A stretch of DNA of 61,227 bases. Source: Candidatus Woesearchaeota archaeon (lineage in GTDB: Archaea > Nanobdellota > Nanobdellia > Pacearchaeales > GW2011-AR1). Both the position numbers and the translations under genes were made by a program. The DNA lies in contig CAZCCD010000005.1 of NCBI GenBank assembly GCA_964497435.1, positions 46,214 through 107,440 of the forward strand, given 5' to 3'. Within the stretch, counting starts at the first letter, position 1. Each line of letters starts with the position of its first letter. Below the pieces are notes generated by a model that worked only from the letters and a program-made list of their open reading frames with translations, did no database searches and was not told the origin of the DNA. Shown piece by piece: positions 5,451 to 49,810 of the stretch.

Positions 5451-6122
5451 ATGTCAAAACTACCAATTACAAGAACTCAAGCCTTTGAACTTATCAAAAA
5501 GTATAATAAAGACGAAAGAGACCTAATTCATTACTTAGAAAGCGAGGCTGTCATGAGAGAGTTAGCTTCTAAACTTGGTGAAGATGTTGATTACTATGGA
5601 ATGCTTGGTTTGCTTCATGACATTGATTGGGGCTTAACAAAAGACAACCCAAAAACACACATGACTAAAGCTCCTGAAATTTTAAAAAAAACTGGTTTTG
5701 ACAATGAGTTTATTGAAATAATTTTAAGTCATGCTTACGGATTTGATTGCGGAGGAGATGATTCTGATTTTCTAAATAAAAAAAGAACAAAGAAAATAGA
5801 ATTTGCTTTAGCCGCTAGTGAAACTATAACTGGTTTAATACATGCCTATGCTTTAATGCGACAAGGAAGAATTTCAGACATGGAAGTTTCTGGCTTGAAA
5901 AAGAAATTTAAAGACAAGACTTTTGCAGCTGCAGTTGATAGAGAAATTATTCGAGAATGTGAAAACCTCCAGCGGGTTTCTCACACTTCCAGCGACCAAA
6001 CCGAATCTTCTAATTGCCTCCGACAGATTCGGAATGAAAATCTTGGTTTAACTTTAGATGAATTCTTCAAAATTGCAATAGAAGGAATTAAAAAAATTAA
6101 GGAAGAAGTTGGATTAAGTTAA
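5451..6122 (+). CDS. HD-domain phosphohydrolase carrying an in-frame ~26-aa insert
   Basis: LGLLHDIDWG (HD dyad) and SHAYGFD. The insert NLQRVSHTSSDQTESSNCLRQIRNEN is encoded by a GC-rich hairpin element. Confidence 0.75.
   Translation: MSKLPITRTQAFELIKKYNKDERDLIHYLESEAVMRELASKLGEDVDYYGMLGLLHDIDWGLTKDNPKTHMTKAPEILKKTGFDNEFIEIILSHAYGFDCGGDDSDFLNKKRTKKIEFALAASETITGLIHAYALMRQGRISDMEVSGLKKKFKDKTFAAAVDREIIRECENLQRVSHTSSDQTESSNCLRQIRNENLGLTLDEFFKIAIEGIKKIKEEVGLS
5967..6031 (-). mobile_element. miniature hairpin cassette inserted antisense and in frame inside the HD gene
   Basis: GC-rich block in an AT-rich gene. 8-bp stem ccgaatct/agattcgg (6001-6032) with loop ..ttgcctccgac. Homologous to the L11 leader cassette. 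Flanked by gaatgtgaaaac / gaatgaaaatc. Confidence 0.4.
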
Positions 6123-8104: not shown

Positions 8105-8184
8105 TGCAGAATTGTTAATACCAAAACATTTATATACCTCCGATTATATAAATTTATATAGATAGATTAATAAACTTATATAAA

Positions 8185-8442
8185 ATGGAACAAATAATTC
8201 ATTATCCAAATCTTAAAACAGTGTTAATGGTAGAAAGGGCTTTAAAAGAAGCAGATAAAATAATGACTAGAGAAGAGCTTAAGGAAAAATTGCCAAAACA
8301 GATAATGCATCAAACATTAAACATAATTCTAAATTACCTAGAAAAGAGAGGGATGATTATAGATAGCCATAAAGGAATATTATGGATTTACAATCCAAGT
8401 CCAAGGCTAAAAAAAGCAATTGAAAAGGGAAGAGAGATATAA
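8185..8442 (+). CDS. wHTH protein, putative antitoxin
   Basis: 85 aa. TAATG stop/start overlap with the downstream toxin-like gene. wHTH-like LNIILNYLEKRGMI. Confidence 0.45.
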   Translation: MEQIIHYPNLKTVLMVERALKEADKIMTREELKEKLPKQIMHQTLNIILNYLEKRGMIIDSHKGILWIYNPSPRLKKAIEKGREI

Positions 8443-8816
8443 TGTATCAAGGTAAAGAAGTTAAAGTAATTTTATCTCAAGAGGCAGATGAAGTTTATGG
8501 AGATTTAAATAAGATTGTTGATGAAGAGAAAAATAAAGGGATAGACAGTTCTTTCCATCAAACTTTATTAAGGTCAATAAACAGAGTTAAGGAATTATTA
8601 AAACAAAACCCTTTTGCAGGGGATCAGGTTCCAAAAAAATTAATTCCTGAAAGATATATTAAAAAATACTTAGTAGAAAATGTCTGGAGAATTGAATTGG
8701 CAGACAGGTGGAGGCTTTTGTATACAATAACTGGAAATAAAATTGAGATAATAAATTTTGTTTTAGATATAGTTAACCATAGAGATTACGACAAAATTTT
8801 GGGATATAAACATTAA
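8442..8816 (+). CDS. RelE/ParE-like toxin
   Basis: VWRIELADRWRLLYTITGNKIEIINFV resembles the RelE/ParE core (W/YRI..gdyRiiY.i). Overlaps the upstream small gene. Confidence 0.45.
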   Translation: MYQGKEVKVILSQEADEVYGDLNKIVDEEKNKGIDSSFHQTLLRSINRVKELLKQNPFAGDQVPKKLIPERYIKKYLVENVWRIELADRWRLLYTITGNKIEIINFVLDIVNHRDYDKILGYKH

Positions 8817-8841
8817 TAAATAAAAAACATTTCAATAAGTT

Positions 8842-9030
8842 ATGTCCTTAATCGTAAAATCAAACATAAAAAAGGTCGTGAAAGATTTGCAGGGGAAAGA
8901 AGAAAATGTAACCTCTGTTGCTGAAGAAGTCGGCATGGCTTTGGAAAGAAAAGTTGAGGAGATTTTGAGAGAGGGGATAAAGAGAGCGAAGGAAAACGGA
9001 CGCCGTACACTACAAGCTAGAGATCTTTAG
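8842..9030 (+). CDS. histone-fold-like small DNA-binding protein (DUF1931-like)
   Basis: 62 aa. Helix-strand-helix pattern ending in AKENGRRTLQARDL, as in archaeal histone-fold proteins. Confidence 0.45.
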   Translation: MSLIVKSNIKKVVKDLQGKEENVTSVAEEVGMALERKVEEILREGIKRAKENGRRTLQARDL

Positions 9031-9497
9031 TAAGGTCTTGATTTCATATAAAAAGGTCCGTATAGTCTTGGACCATAACTACTTGTAAAATCTTCTACAA
9101 AATAAAGATCATCTCCACAAAATATTGCTCTTCTCCTATGTCCAAGACCTTCACCATAAGAACCATCATCTAAATAATAAAAATATTCAATTACTATTGG
9201 AGTTGCGTCTGTTGAAACACATTTGTAATCTTCCAAATCCCAACTTTTTGCATTACCCTGAATTAAATATTCTGACAAATCTCCATCAAATTGTATGAAC
9301 CCGTTTACAGATTTGCTTGGTTCAAAAAATTCCAATTCAAAATAACCTTCTGGCAGACCATATACACAATACCCGTCTTGATTAGAGCACTCCTGATTAA
9401 TTTTAGTAGTAGAAGTAGATTTAGCAAAGTTATAAACCAAAATTCCAGCTAAAATTACAATTAATAAAATTCCTATAGTCAAATATGCTTGTTTCAT
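9027..9497 (-). CDS. membrane-anchored secreted protein
   Basis: N-terminal anchor AYLTIGILLIVILAGILVY and a Cys/aromatic-rich ectodomain. Confidence 0.5.
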   Translation of the reverse strand: MKQAYLTIGILLIVILAGILVYNFAKSTSTTKINQECSNQDGYCVYGLPEGYFELEFFEPSKSVNGFIQFDGDLSEYLIQGNAKSWDLEDYKCVSTDATPIVIEYFYYLDDGSYGEGLGHRRRAIFCGDDLYFVEDFTSSYGPRLYGPFYMKSRPY

Positions 9498-19673: not shown

Positions 19674-20443
19674 TAAATAAAAACAATAAAGGCCAGGTAG
19701 CAATGTTTATAATAGTAGGGATTATGATAGTTTCAATAGTAATAATATTTATTTTATTGAGGAATGTTTCAAAGCCTGATTTGAGTTTAAGTCCTGACAA
19801 AAATCCAAATGCTTTTTTATCAAGCTGTTATAAAGACAACGTTGAAAAAAGTGTTGATTTACTGATGAAAAATGGCGGCTATATAAATCCGCCTTTATAC
19901 TTAGATTTTGAATTTGAAAATGAGGATGTTTCAAGGATTTCTTATCTTTGTTATTATGAAAACTATAATATGCCTTGTGTTAATCAAGAGCCAATGTTTA
20001 TACAACATTTAAAAGATGAAATAAAAAATTATATTAAAGACGATGTAAAAAATTGTTTTGATAATTTAGGGGTCAGCCTTGAAAATGATGGGTATGTTGT
20101 TCAGGCAGTTTATAGAGGATTTGATATTTCTCTAGATGAAAAGGGAGTGTCTATTGATATTATTGGGGAATTAACACTTACTAAATCAGGGGAAACTGGC
20201 AAGGAAACTGGTTTTGGAACAAGAATTTCATCTAATCTTTATAATTTAGCAATTGTTTCACAAAGAATAGTAAACGATGAAGTTAGAAATTGTGATTTTG
20301 ATTACATAAATTATATGACTATTTATCCTGAATATGACATAGACAAAGTGATAACTCTAGATAAGACTAAGATTTATACAATTAAACAGGCAGATTCTGA
20401 AGAATTCTTTAGATTTGCTGTAAGAGGATGTGTCTATGGTTAA
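19670..20443 (+). CDS. pilin-like protein (class III signal-like N-terminus), paralog of 23544-24308
   Basis: MINKNNKGQVAMFIIVGIMIVSIVIIF, then a globular Cys-containing domain collinear with the 23544 protein (SC..D......L...GG......YLCY......C..Q.P). Confidence 0.55.
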   Translation: MINKNNKGQVAMFIIVGIMIVSIVIIFILLRNVSKPDLSLSPDKNPNAFLSSCYKDNVEKSVDLLMKNGGYINPPLYLDFEFENEDVSRISYLCYYENYNMPCVNQEPMFIQHLKDEIKNYIKDDVKNCFDNLGVSLENDGYVVQAVYRGFDISLDEKGVSIDIIGELTLTKSGETGKETGFGTRISSNLYNLAIVSQRIVNDEVRNCDFDYINYMTIYPEYDIDKVITLDKTKIYTIKQADSEEFFRFAVRGCVYG

Positions 20444-23400
20444 TGTAAAATTTTTATTGAGCATATTTATCTTGATTTCTTTAATAGGAATTACAGATTC
20501 TGTTTTATTGCAAACTGGTTGCTGTGAAAAAACAACAAAAAATGCATGGTGCCAAGATGGGCCTGTTGACTGTGCTTCTGGATACAGAACAAATTCAAAT
20601 ATTTGCGAGGAAACAAATTTTTGTCAGACAGGATATTGCTATGATGTAAGTGAGGGAATATGTGAATCTGGCTCTACAAGCAAAAGATGTGATGAAAAAG
20701 GAGGCCAATTTTTCAGGAATTATGATGAACAATTATGTCAGGAAGGATGTTGTTATCGTGGAAAAAACACTGATTATGTAACTGAATCAAGATGCAATAT
20801 ATTGGCTAAAAGAGCAAGCTTTCCTGATCCTGTATGGGATTCATCAGTTTCTGAAGAAGCGTGTAGATTTTTAAGTGAAGAAGAAGGAGCTTGCGTTATT
20901 GATGAAAGATGTATATTCACGACTGAAAAAGAATGTGTAGAAATGTTTAATGGAGAAATTAATCTTGGAAGATTTTGTTCTGACTTAAACAACGATTATG
21001 AAAAAAAAGATCATAAAGAGTGTTATAACGGAGATGTTTATTGGTATGATTCTGGAGGAAACAGGGAAAATGTAGCTGAGGATTGTGTAGAAGGAGAATC
21101 CATATGCAAGCTGCAAGGAGGAGATTATACTTGCAAGGATATAACTTGTTTTGATGAAAAAAATGACAAAATAAGAAAACATGGAGAGAGTTGGTGTGAA
21201 TATGAAGGATATATAGGAGAAAGTAGATCCTTAGTAGGAAGTGAGCAATGCAAATTAGCCTGTGTCAATGGAGAGATAGAAGTTGAGTGCAGTGATAAAA
21301 GAACAAAATTATGCGCTGAAAATATAACTAATGGAAAATCTAATGCTGTAATGAGAAACAATCTTGCCATGGATTGCTTTAATATAAAGTATTATGACGA
21401 ATGCAACAATCACCCTGATTGTAAATATACTTCTTTTTTTACTGCTGGTTGGTTTAATGTCGGAATGTGTGTTCCAAAATATCCTCTTGGTATTGATTTT
21501 AAATCTGAAAATCCTAAGTATAATGGAGAGAACATATGTGCTTTAGGAAATTTAAGATGTTGGGTTGCAGTAAAACCAGGATTTCCTGATCCTAGAGATT
21601 ATAATATTGGAGAATGGACTGCTAATATTGAATGCACTGGCCCTGAATTTATAAGAGATATGAATTATCTTTGCACTTCTATTGGAGATTGTGGAATGGA
21701 GATAAATTATGTTGGAGTCAAAACAACAAATTATCAGACAATTGATAATATGTGGCAGGGGGTAAATTACAGGGTAATGGAACCTTATGATGAAGGATTC
21801 TCTGGAGGATTACATGAAGTGTGCGAAGATTATGTCAAAAGAGTTCTTAGAGGAGATGAAGGAGGTTCTTGGAAAGAATGGTATTTTTGGTTATGTAGGC
21901 AATATTTAAACGCTAATATTGGATTACCATCAACCTGGGATACCGGAGTTCCAGCATATTGGAATGTCAGTGATTTTCTAAAAAAAGAAAATCCTCAAGA
22001 TGTTCTTCCAGAATATTTCTTGACAAATAGAAATCCAAGTTTTTTAGGAACTAAGTACATAAATGTTATATACAAACCACAAGAATGGGACAAGATTTTA
22101 GCTATAGACTTTAGATGCAACCCATGGCAGCCTCCTTTTGGAGGAAGAGACTGCAACAAATGTAATGAAGGAGATATTCCTTGCAATGATTACAGATGCA
22201 ATGCTCTCGGACAAACATGCAAAATATTAGATGACACGAGATATAGTGAAAATCCTATATGCATAAGTGAAATTCCTCCAGAATTTAGAGCTCCTGAAAT
22301 AACATTTAAAGAATCTCCTGGATATAAAGGAGAGGAATTTGTAAATGGAGTAAAAATAACAAATCTAGATGGCAGTTGCATTGAAAAGCATAGCGATATA
22401 TCTATTGTCCTTGAAACAGATGAAAGAGCTAAATGTGCATTTGTATTAAATTCAAGCGAGCTTCTTCAGGCATTAGAAAATGAAAAAAGATATAACACAA
22501 CCCATCAAATAGATATTAGATTAAGTTTTGATGATAGATTGAGGATTTACACTTCTTGCCAGGATGTTTATGGAACCAGAAATACTGCAGAATATGTAAC
22601 TGATATCTGCATAAGTCCTGAAGCAGATAATAAAGAGCCAGGAATAGAAAGGTTTGAACCAGAAGATGGAAGCTTTATTCCTTTAGAGCAGACAAACCTA
22701 TCTCTAAATATTATTTTAAAAGAGCCTGCTGAATGCAAATATGAGAGATTCCCTTTCTCTTCTTATGATGAAATGACAGGTTTAATGTCTTGCAATAAAG
22801 ACCAAGAAGGATATGTAGAAAGATTTTGTTTAACAACTCTTGAGGGTTTAGACCAGGATGAAAATAAGATTTATATAAAATGCAGAGATTTAGCTGGAAA
22901 TACAAATATAGAAGATAAAATTTACACTGTTTACGCAACAAAAGAGCCATTATTAATCGAGGCTGTTTCTCCTTTAAATGGAGAAATATTAAAAAGGCCT
23001 GTAAACAGGGAAAATCCTCTTGACCTTGAAATAAAAACTTCTGGAGGAGCCTATAATGGAAATGCAGAATGTGGCTATGTTTTTGTTGAGCAAGGATGGA
23101 GTGATAATGATTTGCCTACAGAAACAGGAACAATTTCTCATAAATACAGATTCACTAACTTAGAAGAAGGGAGTTATAATGTTAAGGTTTCGTGCAATGA
23201 TAAAGCAGGAAATACAGCAGAAACAATAATCAGTTTTTCAATAGAGGTTGATGAAACACCTCCTAAAGTCGTAAGAGTATTCAAAGATGGCTCGAGATTA
23301 AAGATAATAACTGATGAAGAAGCAAGATGTTATTATAATAATATAAATGCCTGCACACCTTTTGAATTAGATGAAAGAGGGACTATGACACAAGGAACTT

Positions 23401-23519
23401 CATCCTTTTCAAAAAACCATTCTGCAAATTGGGATGAAAGTAAGACTTATTATATAAAGTGCAAAGACCAATTTGGTAATTCAAATAACGGATGTGCAAT
23501 AATTGTAAAACCAAGCTAA
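20430..23519 (+). CDS. giant Cys-rich secreted protein (1029 aa) with C-terminal beta-sandwich repeats
   Basis: Signal or anchor, CCEKTTKNAWCQ, dozens of Cys, CNKCNEGDIPCNDYRCNALGQTC, and repeated ..Y.KC.D..GN.. modules. Its N half is paralogous to 24590 and its C half to 27182+28343. Confidence 0.7.
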   Translation: MSMVNVKFLLSIFILISLIGITDSVLLQTGCCEKTTKNAWCQDGPVDCASGYRTNSNICEETNFCQTGYCYDVSEGICESGSTSKRCDEKGGQFFRNYDEQLCQEGCCYRGKNTDYVTESRCNILAKRASFPDPVWDSSVSEEACRFLSEEEGACVIDERCIFTTEKECVEMFNGEINLGRFCSDLNNDYEKKDHKECYNGDVYWYDSGGNRENVAEDCVEGESICKLQGGDYTCKDITCFDEKNDKIRKHGESWCEYEGYIGESRSLVGSEQCKLACVNGEIEVECSDKRTKLCAENITNGKSNAVMRNNLAMDCFNIKYYDECNNHPDCKYTSFFTAGWFNVGMCVPKYPLGIDFKSENPKYNGENICALGNLRCWVAVKPGFPDPRDYNIGEWTANIECTGPEFIRDMNYLCTSIGDCGMEINYVGVKTTNYQTIDNMWQGVNYRVMEPYDEGFSGGLHEVCEDYVKRVLRGDEGGSWKEWYFWLCRQYLNANIGLPSTWDTGVPAYWNVSDFLKKENPQDVLPEYFLTNRNPSFLGTKYINVIYKPQEWDKILAIDFRCNPWQPPFGGRDCNKCNEGDIPCNDYRCNALGQTCKILDDTRYSENPICISEIPPEFRAPEITFKESPGYKGEEFVNGVKITNLDGSCIEKHSDISIVLETDERAKCAFVLNSSELLQALENEKRYNTTHQIDIRLSFDDRLRIYTSCQDVYGTRNTAEYVTDICISPEADNKEPGIERFEPEDGSFIPLEQTNLSLNIILKEPAECKYERFPFSSYDEMTGLMSCNKDQEGYVERFCLTTLEGLDQDENKIYIKCRDLAGNTNIEDKIYTVYATKEPLLIEAVSPLNGEILKRPVNRENPLDLEIKTSGGAYNGNAECGYVFVEQGWSDNDLPTETGTISHKYRFTNLEEGSYNVKVSCNDKAGNTAETIISFSIEVDETPPKVVRVFKDGSRLKIITDEEARCYYNNINACTPFELDERGTMTQGTSSFSKNHSANWDESKTYYIKCKDQFGNSNNGCAIIVKPS

Positions 23520-23543
23520 ATTTATAAACATGCAACGCTTAAG

Positions 23544-24308
23544 ATGGATATGAAAAAAGATGTGAAGGGGCAGACAACAATTTTTATAATAATAGGAATA
23601 ATAATCGTTGCATTAGCTGTCTTAATTTATTTTTTATATCCAAAAATAAGAACTGGAGTTGGAGGAGTTGAAAATCCATACACTTTTATACAAAGCTGTT
23701 TGGAAGATAAAATTACTGATGTTGTTGACATTTTATCTTTAACAGGCGGAAGTGTTTCTCCTGTGCATTATATAATTTACAACGGAGAAAAAATAGAGTA
23801 TCTTTGTTATACAAATGAATATTATAAGACTTGTGTAATGCAGCAGCCATTCTTAAAAGAGCATATAGAAGAGGAAATTAGAAAAGAAATAAACATAGAG
23901 AGTGGAAAATGCTTTGACAATTTAAAGAAAAGTTATGAAAACAAAGGTTATAGTATTGAGCTAAGAAGAGGCTCTATGGCTGTTGAATTACTGCCAAAGA
24001 GAATAGTGGTAAATTTCAATAATACAATGACTGCAACGAAAGACAGCACAGAAAAATATGAATCATTTAGAGTGATTGTGAACAACAATCTTTATGAATT
24101 TGTAAGTATAGCTAATAGCATATTAAATTGGGAAGCAAGATACGGTGATGCTGAAACAACTCTTTATATGACATATTATAAGGATTTGAAAGTTGAAAAA
24201 AAAGTCCAGGAAGACGGCTCGACAATATATATTTTAACTGACAGAAACAATGGAAATAAATTTCAGTTTGCATCAAGGAGTGTTGCATGGCCTCCAGGAT
24301 ATGGATAA
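23544..24308 (+). CDS. pilin-like protein (class III signal-like N-terminus), paralog of 19670-20443
   Basis: MDMKKDVKGQTTIFIIIGIIIVALAVLIYF. Collinear similarity to the 19670 protein. Confidence 0.55.
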   Translation: MDMKKDVKGQTTIFIIIGIIIVALAVLIYFLYPKIRTGVGGVENPYTFIQSCLEDKITDVVDILSLTGGSVSPVHYIIYNGEKIEYLCYTNEYYKTCVMQQPFLKEHIEEEIRKEINIESGKCFDNLKKSYENKGYSIELRRGSMAVELLPKRIVVNFNNTMTATKDSTEKYESFRVIVNNNLYEFVSIANSILNWEARYGDAETTLYMTYYKDLKVEKKVQEDGSTIYILTDRNNGNKFQFASRSVAWPPGYG

Positions 24309-24615
24309 GATGAAAAATATAGAAATGAAAGTTGGCGTTCCTCTATTGATTGTAATAGGTTTTGGAGGATATACTATTGGGGGGGGTTTTGGATCAAGAG
24401 GAACAAATAAAGTTTACGAATTTAGTTACTTAGAAAAACCTGCCGCGATTGTTAAAGAAGATATAAAATTAGGGCCAGATAGATATTATGCTATATTAGA
24501 TAATGGAGATATAATAAGAACAGAGATAACTAGTGATGAAGGTAATAAAATTAGCTTTACAGGATTATTTGGATCTGAGTATTACATAAATGGAGTTAGA
24601 CAAGATGATAAATAA
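24301..24615 (+). CDS. small single-TM protein
   Basis: In-frame ATG at 24301 overlaps the upstream stop (ATGGATAA). VGVPLLIVIGFGGYTIGGGF TM segment. Confidence 0.4.
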   Translation: MDKMKNIEMKVGVPLLIVIGFGGYTIGGGFGSRGTNKVYEFSYLEKPAAIVKEDIKLGPDRYYAILDNGDIIRTEITSDEGNKISFTGLFGSEYYINGVRQDDK

Positions 24616-26296
24616 AAAAATAATTTTAATGCTGATGCTTGTAATCTTTTTAATTGGCCTTGTCAATGTCCAAAAAGTAAATGCTGTCGGCGAAGTCTCT
24701 TTCTGCTGTGAGAAAACAAAAGCAGGGGCTTATTGTTTAAATGCCCCTGAAAATGAATGCGACACTTCAATAGATCCTGTTACAAAAAATGCTTATAGAA
24801 AAGTTCCGACAAACTGCGAGGCAACTAATTACTGCAAGCTTGGAACATGTATAAATTCAAGGCAAGGAATTTGCATGGAAAACACTCCTTTAAGAATATG
24901 TGATAATACTAAAGGATTATGGAAGCCAGAAGAGCCTGAAGAAATCCCTCAATGTGCATTAGGATGCTGTTTAATTGGAGATCAGGCAGCTTTTGTCACA
25001 CAAACAAGATGTAAAACTCTTTCTTCTCAATATGGACTTGAGATTAATTTTAGAGCAGATATAACTGATGAAGCAGAATGCATTGCTGCAGCATCTTCGA
25101 GTGTAAAGGGAGCTTGTGTTTTTGACAAAGAGTTTGAAAGGACCTGTAAAATATTAAGCCAGAAAGAATGCAAAAAATTAGAAGGAAGTGTTGAGAATGT
25201 TGAATTTCACGATGGGTTTTTATGCACTGCAGAAGAGCTTGCAACTAATTGTGCTCCGACAAAAAAAACAACTTGTATAGAAGGAGGAGATGAAGTCTTT
25301 TTCCTCGATTCATGTGGGAATTTAGCTAATATATATGACTCAACAAAATATGAAAATGATAGGCCAGACAGAGAATACTGGACAAGGATTAAAGATAAAG
25401 GTGAAAGCTGCAATCCAAATTCTCCAAATGGAAATGCTGGCTCTGCCTCATGCGGAAACTGTGATTATCTTCTTGGAAGTGTTTGTAAAAAATATGACAG
25501 AACAGAAGATATAACAAATCCTAAATTAGGAAATAATATTTGTAGAGATTTATCCTGTAATTATGAAGGAAATAGATATGAACATGGAGAAACCTGGTGT
25601 GCAACAAATGGTGTAGAAAATGTTCCTGGAAGCGAGAGTTTCAGGCTTGTTTGCTATGCTAATGAAGTGACTATAGAGCCGTGCGCTGCATTTAGAGGAG
25701 AGAGATGCATCCAAGACAATGAAAGAGGATTTAGTTTTGCTGCGTGCAGGGTAAACAGATGGAGAGATTGTATTGCACAAACAACAGAAAAAAATTGTTT
25801 GAATGAAGATAAAAGAGATTGTCAATGGATAAATTCTGGAAATTTAAGGGCTGATTTAAACGAGGAAAAAACTAAAGAGCTTGCAGAGAAATTAAGTGAT
25901 GCTGCAAAAGATGGAGATATTTATGAGCCAAGCCAATATTATCAGTTTGTCTGTGTCCCAAAATATTCTCCTGGTTATGATTTTTGGCAGGCTGAAAGCG
26001 ACGCTGTTGATATCTGTTCCCTAGGAAATGCTCAAGGAAAAGTATTTTACAAGGCAGATAATGTTTTTGACACTCCCGACCAAAACCTAGAAGATTGTGA
26101 CCAAGGATGTTATTTCATATCAGATAAAGGAGTCTGGAGCCAGGATGCGTTCAATTGGGTCGCTCAAAAAAATAATCTCTGTATTAATCTAGGAGATTGC
26201 GGGGACAAGAATAATTTCCTTGATGTGTTTGGATTTAATCATGGAGAAGATCCTGTGACTTGTGATGGAGATCCAGAAGCATGTGAATGGAAATAA
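24590..26296 (+). CDS. Cys-rich secreted protein, paralog of the N-terminal half of 20430-23519
   Basis: Signal peptide and FCCEKTKAGAYC. Collinear blocks (HGETWC, CVPKYSPGYDF, NLGDCG). The start may be the ATG at 24605. Confidence 0.7.
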   Translation: MELDKMINKKIILMLMLVIFLIGLVNVQKVNAVGEVSFCCEKTKAGAYCLNAPENECDTSIDPVTKNAYRKVPTNCEATNYCKLGTCINSRQGICMENTPLRICDNTKGLWKPEEPEEIPQCALGCCLIGDQAAFVTQTRCKTLSSQYGLEINFRADITDEAECIAAASSSVKGACVFDKEFERTCKILSQKECKKLEGSVENVEFHDGFLCTAEELATNCAPTKKTTCIEGGDEVFFLDSCGNLANIYDSTKYENDRPDREYWTRIKDKGESCNPNSPNGNAGSASCGNCDYLLGSVCKKYDRTEDITNPKLGNNICRDLSCNYEGNRYEHGETWCATNGVENVPGSESFRLVCYANEVTIEPCAAFRGERCIQDNERGFSFAACRVNRWRDCIAQTTEKNCLNEDKRDCQWINSGNLRADLNEEKTKELAEKLSDAAKDGDIYEPSQYYQFVCVPKYSPGYDFWQAESDAVDICSLGNAQGKVFYKADNVFDTPDQNLEDCDQGCYFISDKGVWSQDAFNWVAQKNNLCINLGDCGDKNNFLDVFGFNHGEDPVTCDGDPEACEWK

Positions 26297-26362
26297 GTAG
26301 TAATTAAAAAATAGTAACATTTAAAAATAAAACAAACAAAGTAAAAACATGGTAAAAAACTT

Positions 26363-26416
26363 TCCTCAAAGGCAACAAAAGAAAGTTGTTTGAGGGATCA
26401 AAAACCGTAGGTTTTT
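26363..26416 (+). mobile_element. 54-nt hairpin/palindrome leader cassette inserted at the start codon of 26420
   Basis: Bracketed by an exact 17-nt duplication aacatggtaaaaaactt (26346-26362 and 26417-26433) that contains the ATG. About 80% identical over ~50 nt to the L37Ae leader. Confidence 0.5.
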
Positions 26417-26419
26417 AAC

Positions 26420-27172
26420 ATGGTAAAAAACTTAGCAAGATTGGTTGGGGCAGGATTTTTAGTTGGAAGTAGTTTTCTTCCAGCTTATGCTGATGAAAAG
26501 GAAAAAAAAGCTGATGAAAAAATATTTCAAGGAACTATTATTGAATGGGGTGGAAGGCAAAAATCAGGAAAACTTGGTAGATTATTCGAAATAGGTGGAG
26601 GTTTGTTAAGAGGACAAGGAGAAAGAGAGCATGAAAGAATTGTTGCTCGTGAAAGTGCTGATAAAACTAACCTAATTATTGTAAATGGAAAATATTATCC
26701 TGCTCCTGGTTATGATTGGGCTGATAAAAATGATCCAGATAATTATGAGGTTGTAAGAGAAATTACTAACGAAAAAAATATTCCAAGAGATGACCTTAAT
26801 CCTACAAGTATAATAAAACATTTTGCTTGCAGTAGATGGGATGATAATGGAAATAATATTCCTAGTTTAGATGAGTTTAAAGAAAGAAAACTTGTGTTTA
26901 GAAGAGGTGAACCTATAATAATTGCAGCTTCAATTGAATCAGAAAGTGCAAGAGGAAAAAAAATAACAGCAAAGATATATTCTTCAAGAGGGCAAATAGC
27001 AGATCAGGACTGGACAATAATAGGAAATCCTTTTTGTGCGACACTTGGTCATGAAAATAGTTACGACTTTTCTGCTTGGTTGTTTGATAGAGGAGGAGCT
27101 GGCGAGTATCAAGTAAGATGGTGGTATAAAGGAGATATAATAGGGCTAACAGATTTCACAATAACAGAGTAA
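26420..27172 (+). CDS. secreted hypothetical protein
   Basis: Signal peptide LVGAGFLVGSSFLPAYA. 250 aa. No recognised domain. Confidence 0.55.
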   Translation: MVKNLARLVGAGFLVGSSFLPAYADEKEKKADEKIFQGTIIEWGGRQKSGKLGRLFEIGGGLLRGQGEREHERIVARESADKTNLIIVNGKYYPAPGYDWADKNDPDNYEVVREITNEKNIPRDDLNPTSIIKHFACSRWDDNGNNIPSLDEFKERKLVFRRGEPIIIAASIESESARGKKITAKIYSSRGQIADQDWTIIGNPFCATLGHENSYDFSAWLFDRGGAGEYQVRWWYKGDIIGLTDFTITE

Positions 27173-27181
27173 AAACTTAAA

Positions 27182-28321
27182 ATGCAAAAAAAAGTGGTGA
27201 AGAAAAAAAGAGAAAGTGAACTTTCTACTAGCTCGCCTAGACGTAGTCAAGCTAAAGGGATGGTGATAAGCCAGTTAATGATTTTATTAATTGGAATTTT
27301 TGCATTTGCATACATTCTTAGTGAGATAAACTTAGTGGGTGCGGTAGGTGAAGAAGGAGAAGATGAACCTCCTGCTGAAAAACCTGCTCCTTCTACAACA
27401 TTTAATCCTGTGCCTTTTGTTTTTACTCTTAAAGGTGTTGAAAAAATTACACCTAACCAAAAAATAATCAGTGAGGCAGGAAAGGCTGTTGGAGAAAGTG
27501 CAGTAGAAGAATCTGCAAAATTCGGCTTTAAAACAATACTTAAAAATGCAGCAGTTGCATCAACAATATTCTTTGCTATACAACTTCTTGGTCCTTTAAT
27601 AACAAGCGATAGGGGAGCAATAAACATTATATCAACAGCAGCCTCAATAGGATATTTTACAGCAAGCACTTTATCTGCAAAAGCTGTGGCTGCAAAACTG
27701 CCTGGATTTTTAGGAGATAAGACAGGAGTTCTAGGTTTAACATGGGGGGCTGCGATTATAACTATAGGAGTTATTGCAGTCATTGTAATCTGGGGGTTTA
27801 AGAAAACAGCTGAAGAAACTGTTCAGTATTCTTGTTTTGTCTGGGATGCTCCTCTCGGAGGAAATGATTGTGATAAATGCAATCAAGGAAGTCTTCCTTG
27901 CACAGAATACATGTGCAAAAGTCTAGGACAAAGCTGCGAGTTAATAAATAAAGGAACAGGAGAAGAAAAATGTGTCTGGCTGAATAAAGACGATGTAAGG
28001 CCTCCTGAAATAAGGCCATGGAATGATGCTTTATTAAATAGCGACTATAAATATAAAGAAGATACAGCAATCTCTCCTCCAGACAGAGGAGTATTTATAA
28101 GATATAAAGAAGGTTGTATCCAGGCTTTTACACCTTTCAAATTTGGAATAACATTAGATGAACCTGCAAGATGCAAGATAAGTCCTGATAGAAAAAGAAC
28201 ATTCGATGAGATGTCTTTAAGTTTCGGAGGAAGCAGCACAGCAAAATACAATCACAGCATGGAAATTGTTTTGCCAAGCAAAGAGTCTTTAGAAGCTGAA
28301 AATATAACTCTTCAAAATTGA
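27182..28321 (+). CDS. membrane/Cys-knot part of a split paralog of 20430-23519 (ends at an in-frame TGA)
   Basis: AKGMVISQLMILLIGIFAF, three more TM segments, then CDKCNQGSLPCTEYMCKSLGQSC matching CNKCNEGDIPCNDYRCNALGQTC. Same frame as 28343-29362. Confidence 0.6.
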   Translation: MQKKVVKKKRESELSTSSPRRSQAKGMVISQLMILLIGIFAFAYILSEINLVGAVGEEGEDEPPAEKPAPSTTFNPVPFVFTLKGVEKITPNQKIISEAGKAVGESAVEESAKFGFKTILKNAAVASTIFFAIQLLGPLITSDRGAINIISTAASIGYFTASTLSAKAVAAKLPGFLGDKTGVLGLTWGAAIITIGVIAVIVIWGFKKTAEETVQYSCFVWDAPLGGNDCDKCNQGSLPCTEYMCKSLGQSCELINKGTGEEKCVWLNKDDVRPPEIRPWNDALLNSDYKYKEDTAISPPDRGVFIRYKEGCIQAFTPFKFGITLDEPARCKISPDRKRTFDEMSLSFGGSSTAKYNHSMEIVLPSKESLEAENITLQN

Positions 28322-28342
28322 GGATTATTTAATTTATATGTT

Positions 28343-29362
28343 ATGTGCCAGGATTCTAATGGAAATCCTAAAGGAGATTCTCCTTCAGCAAGTTTTGTCT
28401 TTAAGTATTGTGTCGATGACAGCCCTGACACACAAGCTCCAAAGATATTAGGGACAAACATTAATACAAATTCACCAATAGCATTCAATACTAGCTCAGT
28501 AAAAATAGAGCTTTACACAGACGAGCCTGCTGAATGTAGATGGAATAGAGATAGGGATGCGAGTTTTGGTTCAATGGAAGGAACAATGTCATGTAACTTA
28601 AGAGTATTTGACATGAATGCACAAAACACTTACAAATGCACAGCAACTTTAAGTGGCTTACAAGACAAGCAAGACAACAACTTTTATTTTAGATGTAAGG
28701 ACAAGCCATTAGAAAAAGATGAAAAAAAGAGATATGAAAACTCTCAAGGATATAAATTAACATTAATAGGAACACAGCCATTAGTAATAAACAAGATTGA
28801 GCCAGAAGGAATTGTCAAAGGCTCATCTGATTTAATTAAAGTTACATTGAAGGCAGAGACATCGGCGGGATATAAAGAAGGAGAGGCAATATGTTTTTAC
28901 AGCGAATCTTGTTTTGATGTATCGGGAAGCAAGACAGACTACACTTCTTTCTTTTATCCTGATAATAAATTCACCCATACACATAGCCAGGATATTTATT
29001 TAGAAGAGGGAACATATCAATGCTCTATAAAATGTGAGGATCTTGGAGGAAACGCTGATACTAAAGAAACAAGTTATACAGTTGAAATAGATGAATCAAC
29101 TCCAAAAGTCATAAGGGCATACAAAGTCGGATCCAGACTAGAAATTATAACTGATGAAGAAGCTGCCTGTGTTTACAGTCTACAAAGCTGTAGTTATTTA
29201 TTTGATGACGGGGTTAAAATAAACACCTTTGACAAGAAAGTGCATTCTCTTGAATGGGACACTACAAGGACTTATTATATAAAGTGTATGGATGAATTCA
29301 CGAACGAGCCTTTCCCTGATCAATGTTCAATAATAATAAGGGCGAGTGAAGATTTTGAATGA
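28343..29362 (+). CDS. beta-sandwich repeat part of the split paralog (continuation of 27182-28321)
   Basis: C-terminus PKVIRAYKVGSRLEIITDEEAACVY...YYIKCMDEFTN aligns with PKVVRVFKDGSRLKIITDEEARCYY...YYIKCKDQFGN of the 1029-aa protein. Confidence 0.6.
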   Translation: MCQDSNGNPKGDSPSASFVFKYCVDDSPDTQAPKILGTNINTNSPIAFNTSSVKIELYTDEPAECRWNRDRDASFGSMEGTMSCNLRVFDMNAQNTYKCTATLSGLQDKQDNNFYFRCKDKPLEKDEKKRYENSQGYKLTLIGTQPLVINKIEPEGIVKGSSDLIKVTLKAETSAGYKEGEAICFYSESCFDVSGSKTDYTSFFYPDNKFTHTHSQDIYLEEGTYQCSIKCEDLGGNADTKETSYTVEIDESTPKVIRAYKVGSRLEIITDEEAACVYSLQSCSYLFDDGVKINTFDKKVHSLEWDTTRTYYIKCMDEFTNEPFPDQCSIIIRASEDFE

Positions 29363-29591
29363 GGATCAATAATTGTCTCAAATCATTCATCCTCCGGCCA
29401 TAATTCTTTATCTATTTCGTCCAGCACTTTTTGAGTATCAATCTTCTTCATTTTCTTTTTTCTGCTTAATTCAAGAACATCTTCTACTGTCATAACTTTT
29501 TTGATTTAACCTTTACTATAATATATTCTATACTTTTAAGTTTAAATTCTTATTGAAAAACCTTTATAAGTTTAGAACTTCTTATTTCACT

Positions 29592-30041
29592 ATGTTAAAA
29601 AAGAGTAAAAGGGGCGAGATGCACATTTCTTTCGGAATGTTGTTTTCAATAATATTGATTATTGCTTTCATCGCATTTGCATTTTACGCAATAAAAACTT
29701 TCTTAGGAGTCCAGGGCACAGCTCAATTAGCAAAATTCAGGGAAAATCTCCAGGAAGATGTTGATGAGTTATGGAGAGCCAGTCGAGGAAGCCAGAAAAT
29801 GCCTTATTCTCTTCCTAAAAAAGTGGAACAAGTCTGTTTTCAAAAAGGAAATTACGAAAATTTAATTTTTCTACCCATAGAATCAGCAGAAGGCTTGAGT
29901 CCTAAGAGCATAGAGCATATTGACATTGACATCATAACATTAAGAGAGAATCCTTATTGTATAGATGTTGTTAATGGAAAGTTTGAATTAGTCTTAAAAA
30001 AAGATTTTGGTGAGGAATTAGTTACAATAACGAGGGCTTAA
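29592..30041 (+). CDS. pilin-like/N-terminally anchored small protein
   Basis: The ATG at 29592 gives MLKKSKRGEMHISFGMLFSIILIIAFIAFAFYAI. The ORF-track start at 29553 is TTG. Confidence 0.45.
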   Translation: MLKKSKRGEMHISFGMLFSIILIIAFIAFAFYAIKTFLGVQGTAQLAKFRENLQEDVDELWRASRGSQKMPYSLPKKVEQVCFQKGNYENLIFLPIESAEGLSPKSIEHIDIDIITLRENPYCIDVVNGKFELVLKKDFGEELVTITRA

Positions 30042-30080
30042 GAAATAAGAATATTTAAAGTGTAATCTATTATTTTTTAT

Positions 30081-33000
30081 ATGAAAAAGAGGATGAGTAA
30101 AAATCAAAAGTTAGTTATATTGTTTCTATCTGTGATTATTATTGTTGAATTGATTCTTCTAAGTGAATTTACAGGATTTGCTATTAGCCAATTAAATAAA
30201 AAAACAATTGTATTAGAAGAAGAAAAAATTCTGCCGGTTCAAAGCACCTGCACAGACACAGACAAAGGAATAAATATTTACATTGAAGGAACTACTTGTG
30301 ATGGCGGAGCTGGTGGTGGACTTCCTTGTTATAGGGATGAATGTAATGGTGATTATATTTTGGAATATTATTGTGAAGATGGTATAACTAAGGGTGACTG
30401 GTTTGAATGTTCATCAGGAATGTGTAGTAATGGTGCATGCTTTATTGATCCAGATAGAGCTTACTACATAAGTTTAGTGGTAGCAGAACAAGATGGGGGT
30501 GCTACAATACGAGTTGATGATTCTACAAAAGAGATTTCTTTAGGAGGAACAAAAACTATTGATTACTTACCAATAACCCTAACAAGAGCTAAAGAATACA
30601 TTGATCATTATGAAGCAACAATCAATGTAAATTTAGTTTTCTCGCAGGATAAAAATTACATCCAACTACATTCATCTTTTCCAAGAAAGTGGTATGAATT
30701 TAACTTATTAGATGTTTCTGAAGAAAATCAAAGCGCGACTTTTAGGATTAAAACTTATGATGGAGAGGATGTAATTAAGGAGATTAGTTTTGGGTCGGAA
30801 AACTTAGGAAACTTAAGTTTGATTTTAAAAAATCCAGTGTATAAAAATGACTCTCAAATGATTGCAGATATTTTAGTTGAAAATTTGGAATTAATTTCTT
30901 ATGCTAATTGTTTTGACACAGATGGACTTAACTATACAAATAAGGGAAATATTTATGGGAACTACACAGACGGATCTCCATTCAGCTTATTTGATTACTG
31001 TGATGGAGATTTGTTAGTGGAACAAACATGTGAATTGGGACAACCATATTTTAGAGGCTTGAATTGTGCAAATTATGGTTCTTCCTGTGTTAATGGAGCA
31101 TGTCTGCCTTTTAATGGAACATGCATTGAATCAGATTCAGGCATTGATTATTTTAATTATGGAAACAATTATGGGTATTATTCTAATTTAAGCTTCTATG
31201 ACTTAAATGATTATTGCCTTAATAATAACACTATTAATGAGTTTTATTGCCCTAGTAACTTTAGCGAGGTAAAAAATGTTTTATTTAATTGCAGTGATAT
31301 AAATGCAACATGTGATGGGGGTTATAAAAGATGTATATTAAATTTGAAAAGTTGCACAGATTCTGATGGATATGATCCTATTGTCTTTGGTTATATTTAT
31401 GGAATTCGTAGTAATTCTTCATCTTTCCAGTATAATGATACTTGTGTGGATAATTCTAGCGTTATAGAGTATTGGTGTAGTTCGAAAGACTCTTACCCTA
31501 TTTCAAGTGAAAGAAGTTGTAAGTTATATTTAGGAAATTCAAATGCAAGCTGTATTAATGGAGCATGTGTCCCATCTTGTAGAGCTGCTAGTGATTTATC
31601 TGGCGAACAATATGTTTATGGTAGTTACTCTAATGGCACATCTTTCAAAATTTATGACGAATGTATTGATAATGAAACTCTAAGACGTGTTAAATGTGAT
31701 GCAAATGGTTATTATGGTGAACCTTTTTTTGAAGAGTATAATTGTTTAGCAAATGAGTTTGATGGTTGTGTTTCCAACAAATGTATTAATATATGTTATA
31801 AAGATAAAGATTGTAGTCCCTTAGAAGGATATTACTGCAGTGGAAATAAAGTATTTGCCAACACTAGCAGAAGATGTGTTAATCCTGGAACTATTAATTC
31901 TTATTGTGAAGATGTTATTGGAACAACTCTTGTTAATGATTGTGGCACAAACAGTCAGTGTGTTGATGGAATAAAATGTTGCCAGAAAGAGCCAGAAAAA
32001 TTTTTCCCTATAGGATTATGGATGTTTAATAAAACAAACTTTAGTGTTGCTTTAGATCTTAATGTTAACACTATTTTGCCAATTAAATATAATATTGAAA
32101 GCAATATTCTGTTTAATAAACTCCTTGACGATGCAAATAAAAAAAGTATTAAAGTATTTGGAAATAGTCCTTGGTATGGTTGGTTTATTGATGATGTTAT
32201 TAGAAAAGTTAAAGTAAATTCTGTCTGTGGATACAACTCTTTTTCAAGATATATTGTTATGGATGAACCTTACCCTGAAGAGTTAGATGGTTTAAAAAGA
32301 GCTTATGAAAGAATTAAGTTCTATGACAAACAACACCCTGCTTATACAACTGTTCATTTACCATGGATTTTTGAAGATTTTGTAGAAACAGTTCAGCCAA
32401 ATGAATTAGATATCCATAATTTTCCAATACAGCCAGAAACACCTTATCCAGATGAAGACTCTTATGAATACGATAAAGCAATTAATGAATACGGAATTGT
32501 TTTATCCCAAGCTAGAGACATTACTCTTAGACACAATATTCCATTATGGGCAACAACCCAGTCATTTGTTTACCAAAACGAAGATAATACTCAAAGAGAT
32601 ATGTTGTTAAGCGAGGCCAGATTATTAAATTACATGCCTCTTGCATATGGCTCAAAAGGAATTTCTCATTTTATTGATTATTCTTATCCAGAGTCTGGAA
32701 GAGTTGTCTCAGCTTTAATAGATATAAACGGACAAAAAACACAAAGATATTACGAAATAAAAGAATTTAATAGAAAATTAAAGAAAATTGCACCAATTCT
32801 CCTAGAGTTAAACTCGACTGGAGCTTGTAATTCAAGATTTATTAATTATTTTCCAAATCAAGCTAATATTATAATAAATCCTAGTTTTGAAACAACAACA
32901 CCAACATCGATTGATGGATGGAATGGAGATCCTAATTTAGTTATAGCTAATGGAGCAACCATTGGAGGATGTAATTCTGGAAGCAAATGCTCTAAAGCAA

Positions 33001-33989
33001 TAAGAGCTAATTGGGGCTTTCATCAAATAATTTCAGGAATGCAACCAGACACTTATTACGAACTAAGTTACAGTTTAAAAGAGGGGCCAATAGAAACAAT
33101 TCCCAGAGTTCATATTTATTCGTCTACAGGAGAATCAATCATTGGTTGTTCTTCTAATCCTGAAGACTCGTGGAAAAGAGTTTCTTGTGTATTTAGGACT
33201 CCTTTTACTCTAACTGGAAATCCTGTAATGTATGTTATTAGTGGAACAGACCCTTTTGATTCTAATGAATTTAACTATGTAGATGACATTGATTTAAGAA
33301 AAATAAATCCATTTGGAGGAGGATGTAACATTTCTTCAATAACTGAAGTAAGTGGAAATCTTGAAATTGGAACTTTTATAGATGTTAATAATGATAATTA
33401 CATAATGGTTGTTAATAGAGACACTTTAAATCCTATTACAACTGATTTGACATTAAGTGTTGATCTCTCAAAATATAATAATCCTTATTTAATTGATTTA
33501 ATAACTGGAGAAATAGGACAATTAAATAAAGGTTCGTCGCAGATAACTATTTCTAAATCTTTAGAATCTGGTGAGGGGAAAGTTTTCAAAATTGGAGATG
33601 TTTTGTGTGGAGATAATAATTTTGATGGTCGTTTAAGTGCAGCTGATGTACTTTACTTAGTAAATTTTATATTTAAAGGTGGTCAAGATCTAATAATTCC
33701 GTCTGTTGCAGATGTTAATGGAGATGGTGTTATTTCTGCTGCAGATATCATTTATCTCGTGAACTATCTCTTTAAAACAGGTTCTGCGCCAACATGCTCC
33801 TTAGGAAATAGTGTTTCAACACAAACAACATATTCTCAAAGTGAATTACAAGATTATGAAAACAAATTAAAAGAAGTAGGAATAGATATTGACTTAACTA
33901 CTAAATCTCAAACCCAAATAGAACAAACTCAAGAAGAATCGCAAAATATCTTAGAGAAGTTTTGGAATTTTGTGAAAGAGATTTTTTAA
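30081..33989 (+). CDS. giant secreted protein: five Cys-rich modules, TIM-barrel glycoside-hydrolase-like region, CBM-like domain, C-terminal dockerin
   Basis: Five C.D[ST]DG...C...L.E..C...C.NGAC modules. NPSFETTTPTSIDGWNGD (CBM4/9-like). Dockerin repeats DGRLSAADVLYLVNFIF and DVNGDGVISAADIIYLVNYLF (about 33600-33800). Confidence 0.7.
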   Translation: MKKRMSKNQKLVILFLSVIIIVELILLSEFTGFAISQLNKKTIVLEEEKILPVQSTCTDTDKGINIYIEGTTCDGGAGGGLPCYRDECNGDYILEYYCEDGITKGDWFECSSGMCSNGACFIDPDRAYYISLVVAEQDGGATIRVDDSTKEISLGGTKTIDYLPITLTRAKEYIDHYEATINVNLVFSQDKNYIQLHSSFPRKWYEFNLLDVSEENQSATFRIKTYDGEDVIKEISFGSENLGNLSLILKNPVYKNDSQMIADILVENLELISYANCFDTDGLNYTNKGNIYGNYTDGSPFSLFDYCDGDLLVEQTCELGQPYFRGLNCANYGSSCVNGACLPFNGTCIESDSGIDYFNYGNNYGYYSNLSFYDLNDYCLNNNTINEFYCPSNFSEVKNVLFNCSDINATCDGGYKRCILNLKSCTDSDGYDPIVFGYIYGIRSNSSSFQYNDTCVDNSSVIEYWCSSKDSYPISSERSCKLYLGNSNASCINGACVPSCRAASDLSGEQYVYGSYSNGTSFKIYDECIDNETLRRVKCDANGYYGEPFFEEYNCLANEFDGCVSNKCINICYKDKDCSPLEGYYCSGNKVFANTSRRCVNPGTINSYCEDVIGTTLVNDCGTNSQCVDGIKCCQKEPEKFFPIGLWMFNKTNFSVALDLNVNTILPIKYNIESNILFNKLLDDANKKSIKVFGNSPWYGWFIDDVIRKVKVNSVCGYNSFSRYIVMDEPYPEELDGLKRAYERIKFYDKQHPAYTTVHLPWIFEDFVETVQPNELDIHNFPIQPETPYPDEDSYEYDKAINEYGIVLSQARDITLRHNIPLWATTQSFVYQNEDNTQRDMLLSEARLLNYMPLAYGSKGISHFIDYSYPESGRVVSALIDINGQKTQRYYEIKEFNRKLKKIAPILLELNSTGACNSRFINYFPNQANIIINPSFETTTPTSIDGWNGDPNLVIANGATIGGCNSGSKCSKAIRANWGFHQIISGMQPDTYYELSYSLKEGPIETIPRVHIYSSTGESIIGCSSNPEDSWKRVSCVFRTPFTLTGNPVMYVISGTDPFDSNEFNYVDDIDLRKINPFGGGCNISSITEVSGNLEIGTFIDVNNDNYIMVVNRDTLNPITTDLTLSVDLSKYNNPYLIDLITGEIGQLNKGSSQITISKSLESGEGKVFKIGDVLCGDNNFDGRLSAADVLYLVNFIFKGGQDLIIPSVADVNGDGVISAADIIYLVNYLFKTGSAPTCSLGNSVSTQTTYSQSELQDYENKLKEVGIDIDLTTKSQTQIEQTQEESQNILEKFWNFVKEIF

Positions 33990-48453: not shown

Positions 48454-48672
48454 TTATTCCAAATAATAAACATCTGAGGCAAATTTTTTTTCGCATCTCT
48501 TACATTGCCAGATTCCTTTTGAGAGTCTTTTAATTCCTAATTTACCACAAAAAGGACATTTTTGTTTTTTTCTTTGTTTTTCTTCTATTTTAACAAGCTT
48601 GGCTCTGACTGTTTTTCCATATCTCGCTCCAAATCTGCCAGATGATTTTGATTTTTTTGATTTTGATGACAT
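48454..48672 (-). CDS. rpl37ae: ribosomal protein L37Ae (eL43)
   Basis: GRFGARYGKTVR...CPFCGK...WQCKRCEKKFA zinc ribbon. Confidence 0.85.
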   Translation of the reverse strand: MSSKSKKSKSSGRFGARYGKTVRAKLVKIEEKQRKKQKCPFCGKLGIKRLSKGIWQCKRCEKKFASDVYYLE

Positions 48673-48676
48673 CTTA

Positions 48677-48733
48677 AAACCTGCGGTTTTATATCCCTCA
48701 AGCGACTTCTTTTCGTTGCCTCCGGTAGAAGTC
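48677..48733 (-). mobile_element. 57-nt leader cassette between a degenerate duplication of the L37Ae start region
   Basis: 7-bp stem gacttct/agaagtc with loop ..gttgcctccggt, then aaaacctgcggtttt abutting the ATG. Flanks are ttgatgacatctta and ttgataaaactta. Confidence 0.4.
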
Positions 48734-48779
48734 TTGATAAAACTTAGAGATAAAAATGGTTTTTAAATTATTCTATAAA

Positions 48780-49703: not shown

Positions 49704-49705
49704 TT

Positions 49706-49797: not shown

Positions 49798-49810
49798 TTT
49801 AATTTGCATT

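Follow-up and report, generated by a model that had tools for sequence, protein, structure and literature searches.

Correia/NEMIS elements of Neisseria are small multicopy non-coding repeats, placed mostly just 5' of genes, that share a transcript with these genes, form hairpins and alter the expression of their neighbours, and Rickettsia palindromic elements (RPE) are short structured repeats found both in frame within protein-coding genes and in non-coding DNA (PMC10969869). Leaders that sequester the Shine-Dalgarno sequence, such as riboswitch platforms, fourU-type thermometers and the autoregulatory leaders of ribosomal-protein genes, have a terminal hairpin that pairs AGGU with an A/U-rich strand by the AUG, and each of the known ribosomal-protein leaders belongs to a single operon. 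In insertions of the type ascribed to microhomology-mediated break-induced replication or to fork stalling and template switching (MMBIR/FoSTeS), which are sporadic, a segment taken from another place lies between microhomologies of 3-8 nt, and the target between departure and return is duplicated. Here we analyzed a stretch of 61,227 nt from a Candidatus Woesearchaeota archaeon (contig CAZCCD010000005.1; hereafter the window), which is archaeal with ~31% GC and in which an insert between two repeat copies (26346-26433) now forms the 5' leader of a 250-aa gene (26420-27172, plus strand; hydrophobic N-terminus, no Pfam family). The insert is a member of a family of 60-100-nt structured elements in Pacearchaeota/Woesearchaeota-like DPANN archaea that has not been described before. 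It is probably a young copy, produced by microhomology-guided copying, of an element that would provide highly expressed housekeeping genes with a common 5' leader.

The 17-mer AACATGGTAAAAAACTT occurs exactly at 26346-26362 and 26417-26433, an offset of 71 nt, and encloses 54 nt (26363-26416); when up to 2 mismatches are allowed, shuffles give a chance expectation of 0.15 matches for this repeat in the whole window. This duplication had been reported in the initial annotation of the sequence, together with four other features that our analysis bears out. First, the downstream repeat copy contains the working ATG (26420) of the 250-aa open reading frame (ORF). Second, the upstream copy opens an upstream ORF (uORF; 26349-26393) of 14 codons (MVKNFPQRQQKKVV) that ends with TGA at 26391-26393; its codons are ATG GTA AAA AAC TTT CCT CAA AGG CAA CAA AAG AAA GTT GTT TGA, it begins where the transcript is predicted to start and it is presumably translated. 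Third, the palindrome AAAAACCGTAGGTTTTT at 26400-26416 ends 3 nt 5' of the ATG; in our analysis it forms a hairpin, P3 (AAAAACC GTA GGTTTTT), with a Shine-Dalgarno-like AGGT (26409-12) and, after it, a T run in the 3' strand. Fourth, from GGCAAC to the ATG the insert resembles the leader of the L37Ae gene (48670-48720, minus strand), for which ~80% identity had been stated and 42 of 52 identical positions (81%) were counted.

A fifth feature, the hairpin CCTCAAA (26364-70)/TTTGAGG (26389-95) with an inner CAAC/GTTG (26364-26395 in all), stands in part. It is the minimum free energy fold of this copy, in which, compared with the near-identical copy at locus L102, GG has become AA and a C has become T, changes that strengthen its outer stem, but the helix conserved in the family is a different one, ACTTTC/GAAAGT. 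This helix, P1, is formed here by AACTTTC (26358-64) and GAAAGTT (26381-87) and is supported by covariation. The 26364-26395 hairpin, which spans the conserved linker GAGGGAT (26392-98), either competes with P1, or its outer part is a pseudoknot helix, P2', formed together with P1. Because P1 begins within the upstream repeat copy, of which the final 5 nt, AACTT, make up its 5' strand, the boundary of the module lies at ~26358 and not at 26363.

When the 90-nt upstream regions of all long ORFs in the window were surveyed, most genes were found to be leaderless with a TATA-like box beginning ~28-31 nt 5' of the ATG, and operon-internal genes had an AGGT(T/G)- or GAGG-type motif 5-9 nt before the start. 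In front of the insert, the TATA-like box tttaaaaata (26322-26331) begins 27 nt before the ATG at 26349, a spacing as at the leaderless genes of the window, so that the upstream repeat copy sits at the expected leaderless start and 26349 would be the old leaderless ATG. We infer that the insertion gave a formerly leaderless gene a leader that contains a 14-codon uORF.

Repeats are places at which metagenome assemblies may be collapsed or chimeric, and one locus of our collection (L175) has the upstream flank of locus L152 and the downstream gene of locus L148 joined at identical element copies; either two copies have recombined, or the assembly is chimeric at this repeat. That the 17-nt repeat at 26346 is itself a false product of assembly or chimera, the objection foreseen in the initial annotation, can practically be dismissed. 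Assemblies from three different runs agree base for base (loci L001 and L003, from other sequencing runs, carry the whole region, and locus L002 starts inside the insert and agrees from there), and the k-mers used in assembly are typically longer than 17 nt.

Three full copies occur in the window: the one at 26346, the leader of L37Ae, which is also a short form (48672-48737, minus strand; 83 bits with the covariance model), and a longer form in front of L11 (49704-49787, minus strand). A first scan, with a pattern fitting all three and one genome per species, gave mostly chance matches in bacteria together with 19 unmistakable copies in ~11 DPANN genomes labelled Woese-, Pace-, Nanoarchaeota or Naiadarchaeum. 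A stricter pattern matched 54 metagenome contigs, 51 of them true, and a covariance model made from 28 short copies added more than 15 further copies, often degenerate. In total the family amounts to about 90 copies from Pacearchaeota/Woesearchaeota-like genomes and metagenomes, in three size classes of ~44, 57-61 and 63-64 nt measured from AGGCAA to AGGTT. Viral contigs gave a single chance match that had neither P1 nor the linker, and they were dropped. Rfam 15 contained no element match for the whole window at the gathering cut-off, and with E up to 10 on 26300-26460 only noise of at most 15 bits was returned; at the loci of the other copies only tRNA and 5S matches were found. A literature search for a DPANN leader, repeat or RNA motif found no description of the element.

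In its general anatomy, the element consists of P1 closing a near-invariant loop UCGGAGGCAAU (its variant CTCAAAGGCAACAAAA in the 26346 copy), the linker GAGGGA and P3 (AAAACC-GYA-GGUUUU). In the gap-free alignment of the 28 short forms, 99.5% of the P1 cells are paired and 5 of 7 pairs show compensatory changes, with variants such as ACTTTC/GAAAGT, GATTTTC/GAAAATC, ACTTCT/AGAAGT and ACATTC/GAATGT; P3 is 100% paired, with AU, UA or CG as the closing pair. None of 500 shuffles matched the observed covariation score, and slid controls were ~40-60% paired. The long forms have an extra variable hairpin after the linker, which is weakly paired (68%). Their P1 is 91.5% paired with six compensated pairs, their P3 stem measures 9-10 bp and includes two compensated pairs and a conserved A-G mismatch, and 10 of their pairs changed on both sides as against 3.9 in shuffles. 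The putative P2', in which the 5' side of the P1 loop pairs with the linker, is 85% paired across the family and shows 0 double-sided changes, which gives weak support to a pseudoknot.

Some other structures were considered and rejected. A general upstream helix ("P0") competing with P3 is strong in ~8 of 63 copies, where the 5' strand of P3 has a possible partner strand upstream, but is not significant overall (p = 0.14 against mismatched controls) and is absent from the 26346 copy. Box C/D or H/ACA RNA, K-turn, bulge-helix-bulge intron and diversity-generating retroelement repeat, as well as mimicry of 16S helix 45 by CCGUAGG, were dropped by eye as having no supporting sequence features.

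The positions of the copies are strongly biased. In 51 of the 64 distinct copies an ATG follows 3-9 nt 3' of AGGTT, in sense orientation in every case; at least 7 copies have a tRNA gene or a three-tRNA operon within 1-5 nt downstream. The 3' end of P3 is separated from the AUG or the first tRNA base by 1-4 nt. The downstream genes were identified by eye from their N-termini, with Pfam checks covering L37Ae, L11 and Spt5 of the window. They appear to include genes for ribosomal proteins (S10, L37Ae, L11, L10e, L24e, S24e, S3Ae-like, L44e-like), genes for Spt5, SRP54, RFC small subunit, EF-2, EF-1beta, TBP, SMC and DNA ligase, and those for proteasome beta subunit, RNase J-like proteins and several membrane or secreted proteins. 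In half of the copies with a visible TATA-like box, P1 follows the box by 27-38 nt; the element is therefore expected to be the very 5' end of the transcript, with the predicted transcription start 0-25 nt 5' of P1. A minority of copies have other positions: they are tandem or nested (loci L026, L032, L045, L062, L142 and L163), beside the 3' end of a convergent gene (loci L057, L133, L135 and relatives of L135) or inside ORFs.

An upstream ATG is present in 28 of the 51 start-associated copies and absent from 23, and a uORF reaches the main ATG in 19. The uORF ends in an ATGA overlapping the main start at loci L152, L177 and L174, 8 nt beyond the main start at L11 of the window and locus L032, and 27 nt before the real start in the 26346 copy. 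A conserved uORF or coding frame running through the element was rejected: no frame is preferred, with 27, 20 and 20 of the 64 copies free of stops in the three frames.

Gain of copies at gene starts could be examined by looking for scars like that at 26346. For 51 copies, the 28 nt surrounding the main ATG were matched against the 80 nt 5' of the element, and an exact start-region duplication of at least 12 nt was found in 4 of them, where 0.08 were expected (0.0016 per comparison between unrelated copies). All four duplications include the ATG; they are those of the 26346 copy, L11 of the window, locus L032 (16 of 17) and locus L152 (17 nt), and at locus L177, which has the same gene as L152, the upstream repeat copy has decayed. 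The long form before L11 (49692-49811 with its flanking repeats) lies between copies of AAATGCAAATTAAA at 49798-49811 and 49692-49705. The upstream one directly follows the stop of the preceding ORF, the very position at which L11 starts, with no element, in four related lineages. In the same four lineages L37Ae is leaderless and also has no element, whereas an element is present before L37Ae at locus L095 and before L11 at locus L105. The reverse situation is seen at Spt5. Two of the four lineages (loci L004 and L010) have an 89-nt long-form element there, and the window has a 32-nt stretch (50561-50592, minus strand; ..TTAGAGTTTTGAAATG) between otherwise conserved flanks, which is probably a remnant left after deletion of the element core.

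Two side observations concern the same cluster. Between Spt5 and L11 of the window lies an 84-aa ORF with no Pfam match (49811-50065, minus strand), which is probably a real conserved small gene because counterparts of 82-88 aa are found at the same place in relatives. Near the Spt5-L11 cluster of the related genome, locus L004 carries two reverse-transcriptase (RVT_1) genes (1-745 and 8121-9143), and at the corresponding position, next to Spt5, locus L010 carries a gene for a DDE transposase.

Copies also appear outside leader positions. Loci L043 and L057, in one genome, share an identical 62-nt stretch between unrelated flanks, one copy being a leader and the other not. The HD-domain protein of the window (gene 5451-6122) has 223 aa, as against 194-195 aa in almost all listed homologues (more than 100 without the insert), and its extra 25 aa in frame (ENLQRVSHTSSDQTESSNCLRQIRN) coincide with an extra-long, diverged antisense copy detected by the covariance model (5960-6034, minus strand). 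At locus L132 (339-406, minus strand) an extra-long copy in sense and in frame lies inside a Hef/XPF ERCC4 domain and adds ~36 residues relative to PDB 1J22, between IIEG and HPNAIRG (Pfam and PDB comparison). The near-identical locus L176 (minus strand) apparently has the same in-frame ERCC4 copy, the Pfam/PDB comparison covering L132. In these in-frame copies, in the reduced genomes of host-dependent organisms and in having no known transposase, the element is similar to RPE. RPE, however, are 100-150 bp long, defined by a conserved encoded peptide and frequent in ORFs, while in our family most of the conserved copies are sense 5' leaders and no reading frame is kept open.

These comparisons support the view that copies have been gained at 26420 and at other gene starts, as far as can be read from the sequences. 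The initial annotation had described a small mobile module that lands at translation starts and becomes the 5' leader, and the core of this can be kept in substance: the element is dispersed and has been gained at gene starts, as seen from the scars at L11 and loci L032 and L152, the empty L11 and L37Ae sites and the HD insert, but it is not start-specific, as the tRNA, intra-ORF, tandem and convergent 3'-end copies show. Loci lacking the insert were found for L11 and L37Ae, in four lineages, but not for the 26420 gene, which has no orthologue.

On a different account, the element is an old cis-regulatory leader passed on vertically, an RNA that acts like a riboswitch or binds a protein or the ribosome and so controls a regulon of translation, replication and tRNA genes; every absence would be due to loss, and the 17-nt repeat would be an unrelated local duplication. 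The strong conservation of the loop and linker sequences, the covariation of the helices across distant lineages, the occurrence at the same genes in several lineages (Spt5 in at least 4, S10 in several, L37Ae, L11, SMC and RFC in 2 each) and the switch-like upstream strand in a subset of copies would all fit such a leader. It leaves unexplained, however, the ~50-fold enrichment of start-codon scars beside the element, the identical copies at unrelated sites of one genome and the intra-ORF copies where more than 100 homologues lack the insert. In addition, orthologous genes (S3Ae-like, SMC) carry different size classes, and the alternative pairing is not general. We consider purely vertical descent unlikely. 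Regulation and mobility are mutually compatible, and it is the "vertical only" reading that is disfavoured.

How the copies spread can be approached from their ends. The initial annotation took the 17 nt for a clean target-site duplication, and this part does not hold: AACTT doubles as the beginning of P1, and the duplications elsewhere range from 6 to 17 nt (6, 12, 13-14 and 17 nt) and overlap the element ends, as AACTT does in the 26346 copy and AGATTTT at locus L152; most copies retain none. Because of these variable lengths and overlaps, the 17-nt repeat looks like the product of microhomology junctions and not of a staggered transposase cut. A classical miniature inverted-repeat transposable element (MITE), a shortened insertion sequence moved in trans by a transposase, would account for a small, multicopy, non-coding repeat with direct repeats flanking several copies and with intragenic copies, and Correia-type MITEs also sit upstream of genes (PMC10969869). 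Our element shares with Correia/NEMIS and with MITE-like repeats (ERIC, BOX) the small size, multicopy and non-coding nature, upstream placement and hairpins. Correia elements, however, occur in one genus, carry promoters of their own and are bounded by terminal inverted repeats and a fixed TA duplication. The element has no inverted ends (the first 14 nt and the reverse complement of the last 14 nt agree at a mean of 4.1 and a maximum of 6 positions in ~74 copies), variable duplications that overlap its ends and no TATA box; its orientation relative to the downstream gene is nearly absolute, and its covarying structure is conserved far past the genus level, across genomes whose L11 proteins are 65-75% identical. 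A MITE is thus a very improbable explanation.

We rather suppose microhomology-guided template switching or illegitimate recombination, which fits the junctions better than a transposase and needs none. The ends of the donors all read (A/T-rich)ATG, as do all leaderless targets. In the 26346 case, the donor would have been an element at a different locus, and its copy would have entered a leaderless gene within the first codons, with the left junction at AACTT, common to codons 4-5 of the gene and to the P1 strand of the element, and the right junction at (AAC)ATG, common to the gene start and to the start downstream of the donor. Copying would leave the target at one microhomology, read the donor element and return at the ATG microhomology. 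With two such junctions the gene segment between them is duplicated, and the return at ATG would account for the sense orientation. The pattern would be sharpened by selection in favour of copies that leave the gene expressed, and copies outside leader positions would be by-products of the spread. Other junctions can be read in similar terms: at the HD gene the sole repeat is TTTTCA, common to the target and the 3' end of the element, and at loci L142 and L105 the long form starts exactly at the ATG. Such events resemble MMBIR/FoSTeS insertions, with the difference that the same class of donor is reused and the return point is repeatedly a start codon. A dedicated enzyme or an RNA route may also be involved, in view of the reverse-transcriptase genes next to Spt5 at locus L004.

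If transcription still begins at the old ATG, 27 nt after the TATA box, the 5'-terminal AUG would now open the 14-codon uORF ending at 26393, and the real ORF, 71 nt downstream, would be reached either through the Shine-Dalgarno-like AGGU supplied and hidden by P3 itself or by reinitiation after the uORF. P3 places AGGU 7-13 nt before the AUG, with motif and spacing as at the operon-internal genes of the window. As P3 pairs AGGU with AAAACC, initiation would require that P3 opens. The GGAGG of the loop and the linker GAGGGAUC are further Shine-Dalgarno-like tracts, which suggests a possible docking of the small ribosomal subunit. A 16S rRNA 3' end, looked for in the collected loci, was absent from them. 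The element thus resembles the Shine-Dalgarno-sequestering leaders in its terminal hairpin by the AUG, in the conserved structured domain upstream and in the ribosomal-protein genes downstream, but a single element stands before unrelated genes, tRNA operons among them, with the alternative pairing limited to a subset of copies, and no Rfam family corresponds to it.

The element could instead be a processing module or a stand-alone small RNA, cleavage just after P3, or a stop at the T run, freeing an RNA of ~70 nt and leaving a nearly leaderless mRNA or a tRNA with a minimal leader. In Haloferax, tRNase Z cleaves a tRNA-like element that precedes 5S rRNA, and this cut creates the 5' end of the 5S. 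Consistent with such processing are the uniform distance of 1-4 nt between the end of P3 and both AUGs and first tRNA bases, the leaderless nature of most window genes, the 4-5 T that follow P3 in short forms and the copies without a downstream sense gene. Other observations speak against it: no ribozyme or tRNA-like Rfam family is resembled, the 3-nt loop of P3 is unlike an acceptor/T-arm minihelix, and the long forms have no run of 5 T or more. Moreover, the element contains no separate promoter for the downstream genes, which full termination would therefore silence. Overall, this explanation appears quite improbable.

Several points weigh against our preferred interpretation of a microhomology-copied housekeeping leader. 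The search patterns demanded conserved motifs, so that leader-type copies are over-represented in the collection and decayed non-leader copies under-sampled. The 26420 product has no homologue besides itself, and when metagenome contigs were scanned for exact matches to the empty allele GTAAAAACATGGTAAAAAACTTAGCAAG, 0 were found; its insertion is therefore deduced from the scar and from the behaviour of the family. The microhomology model draws on five readable junctions. The transcription start, use of the uORF and leader function are predictions from sequence. Copies in front of tRNA genes cannot act through a Shine-Dalgarno sequence, and therefore a shared function, if any, may lie elsewhere. 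Finally, conservation of loop and linker across genomes with 65-75% identical L11 is unusual for a purely selfish repeat and implies a trans-acting partner. A more far-reaching idea can be offered tentatively. The element may be a self-propagating regulatory leader, possibly a pseudoknotted module, that unites tRNA operons, ribosomal-protein genes, Spt5, SRP54, RFC, EF-2 and others in a common regulon by way of one trans-acting partner (the small subunit, via three Shine-Dalgarno-like purine tracts, or a protein) and recruits genes by copying itself into transcription starts, so that leaderless genes would acquire a leader and become controllable.

Some further features of the window should be mentioned. 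A P3 hairpin alone (ATTAAAAACCGTAGGTTTTTA, including AAAAACCGTAGGTTTTT; 56705-56725, minus strand; 22.5 bits) lies directly after a TATA-like box and 2 nt before the ATG of an uncharacterised gene of 119 aa (56343-56702), and may be a minimal form or remnant of the element. The gene at 6173 begins with ATGCAAATTAAAAC (6173-6186), 14 nt identical to the old upstream L11 start copy (49796-49809); this match, just 2 nt beyond what the start of L11 itself explains, is probably a coincidence. The 26420 gene is surrounded by a run of large ORFs (20430-33989; up to 1302 aa) without Pfam match, with hydrophobic N-termini in those inspected (26420 and 27182) and one cysteine-rich ORF of 568 aa, which looks like a cell-surface gene cluster. 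Besides L37Ae, L11 (with Pacearchaeota/Nanoarchaeota proteins as closest matches, 65-75% identity) and Spt5, the window encodes tRNA genes. Rfam finds three, at 48780-48901, 59089-59187 and 60351-60500, of which ARAGORN reports 0; they presumably contain introns, as they are 99-150 nt long.

What distinguishes this family from the systems described above is a combination: deep covarying conservation, a strict 5' position at housekeeping genes and tRNA operons, recent start-codon copying scars and microhomology junctions. The family is missing from Rfam, and gene callers pick wrong starts or spurious small ORFs at its copies, such as a 38-aa ORF before L11. DPANN archaea have tiny genomes and mostly leaderless mRNAs, and to our knowledge almost no regulatory RNAs are known in them. 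If the above interpretation is true, the element would be the first RNA candidate in DPANN for control of the translation apparatus across a whole regulon. Its scars show steps from a leaderless to a leadered gene, in which the old start is kept, a uORF is created and a Shine-Dalgarno sequence is supplied. A functional RNA motif that seemingly spreads as a repeat without a transposase would also bear on how cis-regulatory networks are wired.

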